Positions 8,753 to 18,187 of a DNA stretch of 27,963 bases are shown here, one piece after another; the stretch's first letter is position 1, and the number at the start of each line of letters is the position of its first letter. The DNA comes from Methanotrichaceae archaeon (GTDB taxonomy: Archaea > Halobacteriota > Methanosarcinia > Methanotrichales > Methanotrichaceae): contig CAVWIG010000050.1 of the NCBI GenBank assembly GCA_963754945.1, positions 1-27,963 on the forward strand. Direction: 5' to 3'. Made by a program: the position numbers and the translations under genes. A model generated the notes under the pieces. The model worked only from the letters and a program-made list of their open reading frames with translations. It was not told the DNA's origin and searched no databases.

Positions 8753-10450
8753 TCACCTGTGAGCATAATAAGCTACTATCGGCTCTCCCAGGCGGTTTAT
8801 GCGCACGAATCCATAACGCTCGAATTGCACAACCTTGCCCAGCTCCGTCGCTATCCCGGCCTCGCCGAATCCCTCATCCACACCGTCGGGCTTCATGACC
8901 TTGACCGGCAATGCGTCGCGTGGAGCCCAGTGGATGATTCTAAACCTGTCTTTCTTCGCCTGATCAGGGTCTACGTAGGCCAATTTCGCCATAGCAGGCT
9001 CTTTGCTTGTAAGCATGACTGTGCAGAAGTCCTTCAGTCTGAATAGACCTCCAGGCGTGAGAGAAAGTAACTCTAGGTCACTCCTACAGATGTAGACTTT
9101 GTTGCCCGCCGGTATCTCCCGAAAGCCACGGTCTATGGTGGGATGGAGCGGCGCGCGCGCGAGCGCGGGCACGTCCCCCTCGATCTCGAGTTCGACAGGG
9201 TCCCAGACGAAAAAGTACCTGTTGGCCTCAGGGTCGATTAGCTTGCGGTTCTCGGCGTAGATGGTGTCCATGCTTATGCTGATGTCAGTCTCGCCGACTC
9301 CAAGCTCCACCATGAACTTGCGAAGGGCTTCTGGCCTGATTCCGCGGCAGCGCATAGCTCTGACAGTGGGCACCCTCGGATCGTCCCAGCCTGTGTACTC
9401 GCCAGCCTCGATGGCCTTCTTGAGCTTGCTGGTGCTGAAAGATCCAAACTGGTGGATCTTGATCTTCCCCCAGTGAATCACCCTCGGATACTCCCAGCCC
9501 ATGTGATTGTAAAGGTACTTCTGCCTGCTTTCGCTGTCCGCCAGGTCCTTGCCCCGGAGGATATGAGTCATTCCGAGCAGGTGGTCCTCCACGCCGGACT
9601 CGAAGTCGAGTAGGGGCCAGACTCTGTACTTCGATCCGACATGAGGATGGATGGCGGTTACTATCCTGAAGGCAGGCCAGTCTCGCATGGCCGGGTCCTT
9701 GTGAGTCATGTCGGTCTTGACCCTCAGAACCGCTTGCCCTTCCGCCAGTGTGCCATCGAGCATCTTCTTCCACAGGTCCAGGTTCTCCTCCGGCAACCTG
9801 TCGCGGTGGGCGCACGCAATCCCTGCATCCTTGTGCTCCTTGAACACGAGCTGCTCGCAATGACAGACGTATGCCCCGCCTCTTCGAATCAGCTCCTCCG
9901 CAATCTCATAGTAGAGCGGCAGCCTCTCGCTGGCTATTATCACCTGGTCAGGCGTCGCACCCAACCAGGCGCAGTCCTCCAGATACCAGCCATACGCCTC
10001 AGGCATCGGCCTTTTCTTTACAGGGTCGGTGTCGTCGAAGCGGATCAGGAACTTGCCGCCGTACTTCTTTACATACTCGGAGTTGATGATGATCCCCCGA
10101 GCACTTCCTAATGTCGGCGGGCCGTTGGGGTTTGGGGCAAAGCGCATTACTACGCCCTCGTCCGCTCCAACGAGATCAGGAAGGCCTTTGTCCGGCTCTT
10201 TGTGTTCGGAGAGTTCTGCGATCAGCTCCGGTGCGATGGCTTCCAGGCGCTCCTGCCACTCTTCAGGACTCATCCTGGCCACTTGGGCCAAGACGGATTT
10301 AATCTCCGGCCCGACCTCTTTTGCCCTGGGACGAAGCTCGGGATGCTCGCCCATTAGTTTTCCCATTACAGCCCCGGAATTTGGAGCAGCCCTGTACTTC
10401 ACAGCGTTCTGAAGCGCGTACTTCTCAATGAGCTCCCTGATCTCTGCCAT
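8753..10450 (-). CDS. gltX: Glutamate--tRNA ligase (archaeal)
   Basis: RFAPNPNGP, RFDDTDP, THILRGKD, GWDDPR, QFERYGFVR. Confidence 0.97.
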   Translation of the reverse strand: MAEIRELIEKYALQNAVKYRAAPNSGAVMGKLMGEHPELRPRAKEVGPEIKSVLAQVARMSPEEWQERLEAIAPELIAELSEHKEPDKGLPDLVGADEGVVMRFAPNPNGPPTLGSARGIIINSEYVKKYGGKFLIRFDDTDPVKKRPMPEAYGWYLEDCAWLGATPDQVIIASERLPLYYEIAEELIRRGGAYVCHCEQLVFKEHKDAGIACAHRDRLPEENLDLWKKMLDGTLAEGQAVLRVKTDMTHKDPAMRDWPAFRIVTAIHPHVGSKYRVWPLLDFESGVEDHLLGMTHILRGKDLADSESRQKYLYNHMGWEYPRVIHWGKIKIHQFGSFSTSKLKKAIEAGEYTGWDDPRVPTVRAMRCRGIRPEALRKFMVELGVGETDISISMDTIYAENRKLIDPEANRYFFVWDPVELEIEGDVPALARAPLHPTIDRGFREIPAGNKVYICRSDLELLSLTPGGLFRLKDFCTVMLTSKEPAMAKLAYVDPDQAKKDRFRIIHWAPRDALPVKVMKPDGVDEGFGEAGIATELGKVVQFERYGFVRINRLGEPIVAYYAHR

Positions 10451-10558
10451 TTGACTTCTCCTGAAAAACTGCCTCTATTGGTATCAGTCTTTCTACAAAG
10501 GGATATCTCTTTGTTGTTGCGGTCGGTGATTTCTGGCCTTGGGATTCAATCTTGGGAT

Positions 10559-10987
10559 TCAATGTTCTTTGCTTGGCAATTGTTGCTCGAGGTCGGAACA
10601 ATACAGCCTTAATGCATCTCCTATCATTTTGTCGTGATCGAAAGCAAGAATGGGCAGGTCGTCAAGCGGAAAGACTCCGGCCGATTTGGCATCGGATCCT
10701 GAGACCAGATTACCTGACCCTTTGGAAAAGTAGCAGACAGAGACTACATGCCCCCGCGGATCGCGATGGGGATCTGAGTAGACTCCAACCAGGCCAACAA
10801 GATCGATCAATAGGCCGGTCTCCTCCCGGACCTCTCTGACAACAGCCTCTTCTGTGCTCTCGCCAATCTCCACAAAACCGCCGGGAAGAGCATAACAGCC
10901 CTGAAACGGTGGATTCTTCCTCTTGATAAGCACTACTCCGCCTTCGAAGAAGATGACCGAATCCACCGCCAGGAGAGGAGTTCTCAT
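10559..10987 (-). CDS. Nudix hydrolase (ADP-ribose pyrophosphatase-like)
   Basis: Nudix box GFVEIGESTEEAVVREVREETGL; RDPRGH; LAFDH. Confidence 0.93.
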   Translation of the reverse strand: MRTPLLAVDSVIFFEGGVVLIKRKNPPFQGCYALPGGFVEIGESTEEAVVREVREETGLLIDLVGLVGVYSDPHRDPRGHVVSVCYFSKGSGNLVSGSDAKSAGVFPLDDLPILAFDHDKMIGDALRLYCSDLEQQLPSKEH

Positions 10988-11004
10988 ACACGACCTTCTG
11001 AAGG

Positions 11005-11035
11005 AATAACTTTTGCCGGACCGAAAAGCTTATTT
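11005..11035. promoter_or_regulatory. Back-to-back BRE/TATA-like promoters (Nudix leftwards, putative sRNA rightwards)
   Basis: Minus strand GCAAAAGTTATT about 20 nt before the Nudix ATG; plus strand CCGAAAAGCTTATTT at 11021-11035. Confidence 0.55.
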
Positions 11036-11059
11036 GCGGCATGCGTCGTTACCACACAC

Positions 11060-11116
11060 GGCAAAGGTCGATTAGTGATCTCCCTCCTTAACCCTAACAT
11101 CCAATCGACTTTTGCC
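11060..11116 (+). ncRNA. Putative small hairpin RNA with anti-SD loop
   Basis: Stem GGCAAAGGTCGATTAG / CCAATCGACTTTTGCC, loop TGATCTCCCTCCTTAACCCTAACAT; begins about 25 nt after the TATA-like box. Confidence 0.55.
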
Positions 11117-11146
11117 TCTTATTCGCCATGATTGAGTTCAAGAGAT

Positions 11147-11230
11147 AACCTTTTCGGTGCAGACTCTACAGTGCGCACTCTACAGTAAATGACTACAGTG
11201 AAGACGCTGTGGTGAGGACCTCACGGTGCG
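11147..11230 (+). repeat. Degenerate ~14-bp tandem repeat, 5-6 units
   Basis: GACTCTACAGTGCG / CACTCTACAGTAAA / TGACTACAGTGAA / GACGCTGTGGTGAG / GACCTCACGGTGCG. Confidence 0.6.
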
Positions 11231-11310
11231 GCCGTGCAAACGATGCCACAAAGTGCCCATCGATCCTTCGCGGCGATGAAGCTAAATTGTATCCTTCCTT
11301 TCTTTAACTC

Positions 11311-11919
11311 ATGCCCTTTTATGTTCTCAAGCTGGGGGGCAGCCTGATCGGTTCAGCCAAGGCGATTGTGTCCAGATTATCTGACCTTGAATCCAAAGGC
11401 TATAGCTTCCTGGTGATTCCGGGGGGAGGCCCCATGGCAGACCTGGTTCGTGGACTTTTCTCGGAGTACAATCTAACGGACGAGGCAGCCCACTGGATGG
11501 CAATCCTGGGCATGGAGCAGTACGCATACATCTTGGCAGACGGCACTGGAGCCGCCTTGACAACGGAAATCGCCAATTGTGTTGGAGTGAAGGTTCTACT
11601 GCCTTATCAAGCCCTGAAGGAGGACGATAGCGGTCTCGGGCACTGTTGGGATTACACCTCCGATGCCGTGGCCGCGCTGGTGGCCGCCAGGCTGAAAGCA
11701 GATCTAATCAAGGCAACGAACGTCGACGGTATCATAATGAACGGCAAGCCAGTAGAAGAGGTCACTGCTGCTATGTTGGTCCGAGTAGAGTCGTGCCTTG
11801 ATCATGGAAGCCTTGAGCTTCTCAAAGGCAGAAGCTGCTGGATTCTTAACGGGACAGATCCGAATAAGCTCATCGATTCAATACTTACAGGAAGAGGAGG
11901 GACGGTTGTAAATGGGTAG
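11311..11919 (+). CDS. mfnE: Amino-acid-kinase family protein, MfnE-like (methanofuran biosynthesis kinase)
   Basis: LKLGGSL, IPGGGPMADLVR, AHWMAILGMEQY, WDYTSD, ATNVDG. Family is clear; the specific function is inferred. Confidence 0.7.
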   Translation: MPFYVLKLGGSLIGSAKAIVSRLSDLESKGYSFLVIPGGGPMADLVRGLFSEYNLTDEAAHWMAILGMEQYAYILADGTGAALTTEIANCVGVKVLLPYQALKEDDSGLGHCWDYTSDAVAALVAARLKADLIKATNVDGIIMNGKPVEEVTAAMLVRVESCLDHGSLELLKGRSCWILNGTDPNKLIDSILTGRGGTVVNG

Positions 11920-12488: not shown

Positions 12489-12560
12489 GGGCTTGTAGAT
12501 CAGCGGTAGATCGCCGCCTTCGCAAGGCGGAGGCCGCGGGTTCGAGTCCCGCCAAGTCCA
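12489..12560 (+). tRNA. tRNA-Ala(CGC)
   Basis: Acceptor GGGCTTG/CAAGTCC with G3:U70; anticodon arm CCGCC-TTCGCAA-GGCGG; T-loop TTCGAGT; T-run follows. Confidence 0.96.
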
Positions 12561-18103: not shown

Positions 18104-18187
18104 CGCCGAGGGTGAGATTCGAACTCACGAGACCCTTGCGGATCACCAGCTTTCCAGGCTGGCGCCATACCGCTAGACGACCTCGGC
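18104..18187 (-). tRNA. tRNA-Ser(GGA)
   Basis: GCCGAGG/CCTCGGC-G; anticodon arm CCAGC-CTGGAAA-GCTGG; long variable arm; T8 run downstream; CCA not encoded. Confidence 0.96.

Follow-up and report, generated by a model that had tools for sequence, protein, structure and literature searches.

The element examined here lies in the spacer between a Nudix hydrolase gene and a gene of the amino-acid-kinase family, which had been called mfnE in a preliminary description of this DNA; a glutamyl-tRNA synthetase (gluRS) gene situated past Nudix was recognized by a domain search of the window, that is, the whole stretch of 27,963 nt that was analysed. The features of the locus are listed in Table 1. On rereading of the sequence, the BRE/TATA-like CCGAAAAGCTTATTT at 11021-11035 and the hairpin beginning at 11060 were both present as previously described, and the pairing of the stem was again found to comprise 14 Watson-Crick pairs, one G-U pair (G11066-T11110) and one A-C mismatch (A11074-C11102). 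The TTAT of the promoter starts 30 nt ahead of the first stem base, and such a spacing between BRE/TATA and stem is what a canonical archaeal promoter would have if transcription began at the base of the stem. From these elements, transcription of the putative small RNA (sRNA) is predicted to start at 11060 or immediately 5' of it.

Table 1. Features of the spacer and of its surroundings (positions are those of the window)
Feature	Position	Strand	Sequence or description	Basis
Nudix hydrolase gene	10559-10987	-	divergent upstream neighbour	Pfam NUDIX, E 1.2e-22
Promoter of the predicted sRNA	11021-11036	+	BRE CCGAAAAG (11021-11028), TATA-like CTTATTTG (11029-11036)	
Candidate operator	11037-11048	+	CGGC-ATGC-GTCG, imperfect palindrome between TATA box and predicted start	
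Hairpin, 5' arm	11060-11075	+	GGCAAAGGTCGATTAG	sequence, fold, model alignment
Hairpin, loop	11076-11100	+	TGATCTCCCTCCTTAACCCTAACAT (UGAUCUCCCUCCUUAACCCUAACAU), 25 nt, G-poor	unpaired in MFE structure
Hairpin, 3' arm	11101-11116	+	CCAATCGACTTTTGCC	sequence, fold, model alignment
Pyrimidine-rich tail	11117-11125	+	UCUUAUUCG (TCTTATTC, UCUUAUUC), presumed weak termination region	
Mirror BRE/TATA-like element	11145-11158	-	ACCGAAAAGGTTAT	pattern match and inverted repeat
TATA-like element of mfnE	about 11281-11289	+	GCTAAATTG	sequence
Amino-acid-kinase-family gene (mfnE)	11311-11919	+	downstream neighbour	Pfam AA_kinase, E 9.3e-18
tRNA gene	12489-12560	+		Rfam gathering score
tRNA gene	18104-18187	-		Rfam gathering score

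Folding of the plus-strand RNA of 11050-11130 gave -20.3 kcal/mol, compared with a mean of -7.94 (sd 2.41) for shuffled sequences (z = -5.13), and none of 200 shuffles was as good. For the minus strand, the z value was -1.86 and nine of 200 shuffles were equally good. The promoter pattern CCRAAARNNTTAT was matched twice in the window, where 0.07 matches would be expected, and none of 100 shuffles reached two; one match is the sRNA promoter and the other is its mirror copy on the minus strand (11145-11157). The loop is almost free of G and is therefore expected to be single-stranded, and its CU-rich motif UCUCCCUCCUU is unpaired in the MFE structure. It carries the 16S-tail-like GAUCUCCCUCCUU together with ACCCU(A)ACAUCC, which is invariant in the family. 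The 3' end of the sRNA is poorly defined at the window copy, since the longest U-run in its tail is only 2.

Comparison with related genomes was carried out at several levels. When the locus was compared with 30 relatives by BLAST, the hairpin was matched at 74-88% identity as separate segments, and the flanking coding sequence was less similar. A covariance model, R1, was then built from an alignment of 16 genera. At E <= 0.001 it has matches in 104 of 105 genomes of the family, including all 64 of high quality, and the top match in each of about 100 genomes scores 52-86 bits. The sole genome missed is 80% complete, and a weak match (E 0.0027) was found there in a later search. Of 16 named Methanotrichaceae/Methanothrix records, 13 have the element ahead of mfnE, and the other three gave no more than 268 nt of upstream sequence.

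Ortholog statistics were obtained from 33 model-aligned loci, 30 of which are distinct. The stem positions pair in 95.9% of 390 cells in the distinct orthologs, compared with only 24-52% in slid registers. Two-sided changes occur in three stem pairs (15 cells), and the covariation score of the stem is 0.197 against 0.149 in shuffles, none of 500 shuffles reaching the former value; this covariation is modest, given that the sequences were aligned by fitting to the model and that five of the 13 pairs are constant. Read on the plus strand, the stem contains 42 G-U cells and three A-C cells, and reading of the minus strand would turn each G-U into C-A; this asymmetry points to the plus strand as the folded one. 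A T-run of at least four follows the stem in 18 of the 30 loci, and an A-run of at least four precedes it in none. All 30 distinct loci have the BRE (CCGAAAG or CCAAAAG) at -39 to -33 and TTAT at -30 to -27 relative to the first stem base. The spacing from arm to arm ranges from 25 to 44 nt among the orthologs, and their tails are U-rich and free of CCUCC. The most invariant segment of the loop is ACCCUACAUCCA and not the anti-Shine-Dalgarno (anti-SD) motif: none of the 30 distinct orthologs deviates from ACCCU-ACAUCC, and the UCCCUCC core is present in variant forms. Thus, both stem and loop turned out to be conserved across relatives, a point that the preliminary description had proposed to check.

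The element does not correspond to any known RNA family that we searched for. In Rfam 15, no match at E <= 10 overlaps the locus (the sole row, an irrelevant lncRNA model at 10424-10543, has an E value of 3.4), the only hits at the gathering score in the whole window are the two tRNA genes, and four homologous loci, including a paralog and distant homologs, gave no match at E <= 1. Reading of the locus revealed neither a C box (RUGAUGA) with a D box (CUGA) nor an ACA box after the stem. Full-text literature searches gave, among the articles listed, nothing relevant on small RNAs of Methanothrix/Methanosaeta and nothing on the stem motif. Coding readings were also considered and rejected: the paralogs have no start codon in common, and within the 5' half of the loop the orthologs differ in length by numbers of nucleotides that are not divisible by three. 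On the minus strand, an ATG within the loop (11100-11098) opens a frame of 38 codons, spanning 10985-11100, whose TGA overlaps the Nudix ATG (ATGA). This frame is confined to the window genus and probably arose by chance, because in other genera TAG directly follows the same ATG.

We also considered whether the locus is a DNA-level element, such as a mobile inverted repeat, a cruciform or a palindromic operator, and not an RNA gene. The conserved sequence of the arms, the multicopy nature of the family (see below) and a further copy of the 9-mer ACTTTTGCC upstream at 11009-11017 would all be in line with it. However, BLAST of 11000-11310 against the own genome returned this locus alone, which speaks against the MITE match that had earlier been named as an outcome capable of refuting the sRNA, and against a mobile inverted repeat in general. 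The position is moreover orthologous across 15 genera (in 27 of 33 loci), each copy is accompanied by a promoter at a fixed distance, the arm spacing varies, and the G-U to A-C ratio of 42 to 3 would be unexpected for a DNA palindrome. A DNA-level element is therefore highly improbable.

The gene order Nudix (minus strand), RNA (plus strand) and mfnE (plus strand) was observed in 27 of 33 loci; mfnE itself is seen in 26 of them and the contig ends in the other. The remaining six loci are those of genus g6, in all six genomes of which the RNA occurs with its promoter and in the absence of both Nudix and mfnE. There, the spacer is roughly 900 nt and no plus-strand ORF is found for about 600 nt downstream. 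The TATA-like element that had previously been suggested for mfnE is indeed present in the window, at leaderless distance, and other genera have a conserved CTCAAATAGG-type box about 31 nt upstream of the mfnE ATG. An SD is missing from mfnE in most genera, and the distance of about 31 nt from its TATA-like box to the ATG corresponds to leaderless geometry. Judging from these elements, mfnE, and probably Nudix, look leaderless.

This neighbourhood bears on the alternative, raised in the preliminary description, that transcription from 11021-11036 yields a long mfnE leader with the hairpin as its 5' part. In agreement with a leader, the window copy has no U-tract, the RNA contig of one relative spans 11094 through 11166 and further, and in many genera mfnE begins only 34-100 nt 3' of the element. 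Yet mfnE has its own TATA-like box and leaderless geometry, a U-run directly follows the stem in 18 of 30 orthologs, the g6 copies stand without mfnE, and the paralogs have no consistent downstream gene. The mfnE box and the stand-alone g6 copies speak against the leader, which we regard as very unlikely. The stretch from 11060 to about 11122 is, with high probability, a real RNA gene on the plus strand, as judged from sequence comparison.

In most genomes of the family, R1 also produced further, weaker matches of 25-48 bits. The own genome contains about ten such additional loci, which lie in varied intergenic regions, and most of the ten inspected have a BRE/TATA-like box at the same distance. 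They include three tandem family members (G000 C28:199018-199526) spaced about 270 and 170 nt apart. The paralogs of the own genome consist of the stem GGCAAAAGUCGAU/GACUUUUGCC, the loop UUUUCUCCCUCCUACAUC and the tail CUCCCUCCUUAUUA, the last being a single-stranded 3' tail behind the hairpin. They resemble the window copy in BRE/TATA distance, in stem sequence, and in the CU-rich UCCCUCC motif and CCUACAUC of the loop. In contrast, the window copy occurs once, in the syntenic order Nudix-sRNA-mfnE, and its conservation is much stronger; its loop, which includes the invariant ACCCUACAUCCA, exceeds theirs in length; its tail is UCUUAUUCGCC, the second CUCCCUCCUUAUUA motif being missing; and, in its genus, it faces a mirror promoter. 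The missing CUCCCUCCUUAUUA tail separates the ortholog subfamily from the paralogs and is not treated as defining the superfamily. In sequence terms, the window locus belongs to a multicopy family of putative hairpin RNAs, of which it is the best-conserved member and the one that is single-copy and syntenic.

Homologs with the same stem, promoter and C-rich loop were identified in three other families of the class. In an alignment of 22 orthologs, paralogs and other-family copies, the columns of the stem GGCAAARGUCG/CGRCUUUUGCC are invariant or at least 90% conserved. A superfamily model, R2, was run on a phylum-wide sample and gave 20 matches in the own genome, with 53.5 bits for the window copy. 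R2 has matches in all four Methanotrichaceae genomes of the sample. In family f3, it detects a single copy per genome in 10 of 14 genomes, these copies being distributed over three genera; it has no match in the two genomes of genus g21, in two other genera of f3, or among the 132 genomes of 24 other families searched. Within about 1.5 kb of the other-family copies (seven loci), gluRS, Nudix and mfnE were not found. On the evidence of these model matches, members of the predicted hairpin family occur in several copies per genome in Methanotrichaceae and in one copy in a sister family. Bacteria also have multicopy sibling sRNAs with C-rich or CU-rich loops (e.g., LhrC1-5 of Listeria), whose exposed pyrimidine motifs are able to pair with SD. 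They are similar in that several copies occur per genome and each is a short hairpin; they are not homologous to the present family, and their genes have sigma-factor promoters and Rho-independent terminators.

Between the TATA box and the predicted start, orthologs, paralogs and copies of family f4 contain a conserved element consisting of CGRC, 4-6 nt and GNCG. The consensus of the 30 ortholog loci is CG.C...CG at -23 to -10, and a variant, CGGCAAT.GACGTA (CGGCAATTGACGTA), is found in own-genome paralogs and in family f4 (L064). Its recurrence at this place suggests that the element may be a common operator of the whole RNA family.

Turning to possible functions, the likeness of the loop to the 16S 3' tail, pointed out in the preliminary description, is real when judged against the 16S of the own genome, which ends in ...GGAUCACCUCCUAAAG and is similar to the loop segment GAUCUCCCUCCUUAA. 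The loop reads AUC(UC)CCUCCUU, which is the tail-like part, and continues with ACCCUACAUCCA. Start regions were examined in a crude set, 800 being sampled from 1,640 ORFs with a length of 200 aa or more and the first ATG being taken as the start. In the own genome, GGAGG is present upstream of 8.7% of these starts, with a peak at -13 to -11, compared with 3.1% internally, and pairing with the loop at -12 kcal/mol or better was obtained for 17.6% of upstream and 8.6% of internal windows. Three shuffled loops gave 7.6-12.1% upstream and 3.6-8.5% internally; this ratio is similar to that of the real loop, so the start-region signal is weak. A duplex scan of the own genome with a 30-nt loop revealed no outlier except the cis-antisense site, its top matches lying mostly away from ORF starts. 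The complement of a 21-nt loop sequence, searched in five genomes with up to three mismatches, returned only three self loci; the lack of a match in the two g2 genomes is explained by the different loop of g2. The complement of the invariant 12-mer, with at most one mismatch, was found at the level of the reversed control.

Among the neighbouring genes, the start region of gluRS pairs with the loop at -14.3 kcal/mol on average; 19 of 24 values reach -12 or better, and the -11.9 of the own genome is not unusual. This strong pairing is due to an ordinary gluRS SD. The values for the Nudix and mfnE start regions are -11.0 and -7.7 kcal/mol. The gluRS start region of the window (10451-10490, minus strand) has a clear SD, CAGGAGAAGUCAAAUG, and across genera AGGAGAU or GGGAGAU lies 6-8 nt ahead of the gluRS ATG.

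By analogy with described archaeal sRNAs, masking of ribosome-binding sites (RBSs) appears to be the most likely mechanism, an assignment that we make tentatively. The BRE/TATA at 11021-11036 would set the start at the foot of a stem of 13-16 bp, and the resulting sRNA of about 60-65 nt would present the G-poor, CU-rich loop on its stem, followed by the pyrimidine-rich tail. The exposed AUC(UC)CCUCCUU and ACCCUACAUCC would then pair with purine-rich ribosome-binding regions of mRNAs and block initiation, as described for sRNA41, sRNA154 and sRNA162 of Methanosarcina mazei. These M. mazei sRNAs are reported to mask RBSs via anti-RBS sequences in exposed loops, and have experimentally supported targets such as the RBSs of the ACDS operon and glnA2 (Buddeweg et al. 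2018 and others, as reviewed in PMC5867862). Judged by this description, the present RNA is likewise an intergenic archaeal sRNA in a methanogen of the same broad lineage, for which masking by an exposed loop is proposed. It differs in that it would consist of one hairpin, some 60 nt long, whose stem sequence is invariant and common to a gene family. The targets in M. mazei are experimentally supported, and the present case offers only generic in silico pairing with SD-bearing start regions.

The conservation pattern allows a second function to be envisaged, that of a protein-binding or decoy RNA, in which the stem would be the recognition site of a protein and the tail-like loop would titrate a 16S-tail-binding factor or compete globally for SD. 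Several observations are compatible with such a role: the stem sequence is kept across orthologs, paralogs and four families; five of 13 stem pairs are constant; the loop segment that varies least differs from the anti-SD motif; AUC is retained before the CCUCC core as in 16S GGAUCACCUCCU, with one lineage reading UGGAUCCCUCCUA; CUCCCUCCUUAUUA is placed as a single-stranded tail in the paralogs; and neither the duplex scan of the own genome nor the complement searches found a specific mRNA target. On the other hand, the analysis yielded no candidate protein, the conservation of the stem sequence could also reflect promoter-proximal or termination constraints, and the mimicry of 16S is not strict, because copies outside Methanotrichaceae have CCCCUC in place of CCUCC. 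We consider a decoy rather unlikely.

A broader possibility is that the invariant scaffold GGCAAAAGUCG, which is restricted to the class among the sampled genomes, presents copies of the 16S rRNA 3' tail, has expanded in Methanotrichaceae from one gene to about twenty per genome, and forms a joint ribosome-tail mimic system whose core copy is under its own operator and antisense control. The RNAs of such a system would compete globally with 30S for SD sites, or titrate a 16S-tail-binding factor, and translation could thereby be shifted between SD-led and leaderless mRNAs. We regard this possibility as quite doubtful.

RNA data were available as contigs of four peat metatranscriptomes, which derive from relatives at 90-95% identity and give no strand, ends, starts or level. 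At least five RNA runs have matches, the shares being small (0.06-0.16). Contigs from three studies cover 10845-11099, 10911-11110 and 11007-11105, that is, Nudix, the spacer, the presumed sRNA promoter and most of the hairpin, and a fourth contig starts at 11094 and runs rightwards. Cover is absent over 11156-11317 in those runs and was not counted as silence. The spacer between Nudix and mfnE is thus transcribed in relatives. The sRNA is not demonstrated by these contigs, because they carry neither strand nor ends, and their cover over the sRNA promoter fits a minus-strand or upstream-initiated transcript better than it fits the sRNA.

A source for a minus-strand transcript is suggested by the mirror promoter. 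It forms an inverted repeat of 14 nt (93%) with the plus-strand promoter, both promoters are equally distant from the hairpin, and it is placed for a start at about 11118, antisense to the hairpin and towards Nudix. A comparable minus-strand element is found behind the hairpin in seven of 30 ortholog loci, compared with a background of 0.023 per 130 nt. The spacer-spanning contigs and the mirror promoter therefore suggest an antisense Nudix leader in the window genus, where transcripts are probably made from either strand of the hairpin, that of the minus strand reaching into Nudix.

Cis-antisense control could accordingly be supposed to be the main role of the locus in the window genus. The minus-strand promoter would yield either the Nudix mRNA or a separate RNA, the first 57 nt or so of which would be the exact complement of the sRNA, and convergent transcription or duplex formation would tune Nudix expression. 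In addition to the equal distance of the two promoters and the seven loci with a comparable element, the contigs of three studies bridge Nudix to the hairpin and end at 11099-11110, and adapter remnants in two contigs place the first read on the plus strand, which, as is usual in common stranded libraries, would faintly point to minus-strand RNA. Against this role, the contigs derive from relatives and carry information on neither strand nor ends, and the folded strand is, by the G-U bias, the plus strand. Moreover, 23 of 30 loci have no mirror element and genus g6 keeps the RNA in the absence of Nudix; cis-antisense is therefore not the conserved function, and we consider it unlikely to be the main one in the window genus.

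In the window genus, upstream of the hairpin, a second copy of the 9-mer of the 3' arm, ACTTTTGCC, at 11009-11017 is complementary to the beginning of the 5' arm; it was seen in this genus only. Judged by this complementarity, it could give an alternative pairing in a minus-strand Nudix leader.

Taken together, the locus is best explained as an independent sRNA gene, the core member of its family, with an RBS-masking loop and, in the window genus, an antisense transcript, a complete account to which we assign an even chance. In the window genus, the mirror promoter would probably drive the antisense transcript into Nudix, and the sRNA may act in cis on that leader as well. Structure, conservation, strand, promoter geometry and membership of the family are shown by the analysis, and we infer where the transcript begins and ends, what it pairs with and how translation is affected. 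The core of the preliminary description, an undescribed sRNA of about 60 nt with its own promoter, is upheld by its occurrence in nearly all genomes of the family, the fixed promoter of the orthologs, the strand bias of the G-U pairs, the stand-alone g6 copies and the lack of an Rfam match. In terms of sequence and structure models, this is an undescribed archaeal sRNA family of a known general kind, of which the window locus is the putative conserved core copy.

Archaea of the Methanothrix family are major acetate-consuming methane producers. An RNA gene that is found in nearly every genome of this family searched, with promoter, strand and structure defined, is a clear candidate for experimental testing, and the number of genes in its sRNA family has grown about twenty-fold in this lineage. 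Should the mechanism proposed here be correct, RNA regulation by RBS masking, so far shown in Methanosarcina, would be found in another lineage of methanogens, and there as a multicopy system. R1 and R2 could serve as the starting point of an Rfam family, and the annotation of hundreds of metagenome-assembled genomes could benefit from them.

Finally, three direct repeats with a period of 14 nt were observed between the mirror promoter and the mfnE TATA: ACTCTACAGT at 11163-11172 and 11177-11186, and GACTACAGTG at 11191-11200. From their arrangement, the repeats may be a transcription-factor site. The first two form a palindrome around GCGC, and GACTACAGTG is also present in the RNA contig of a relative.
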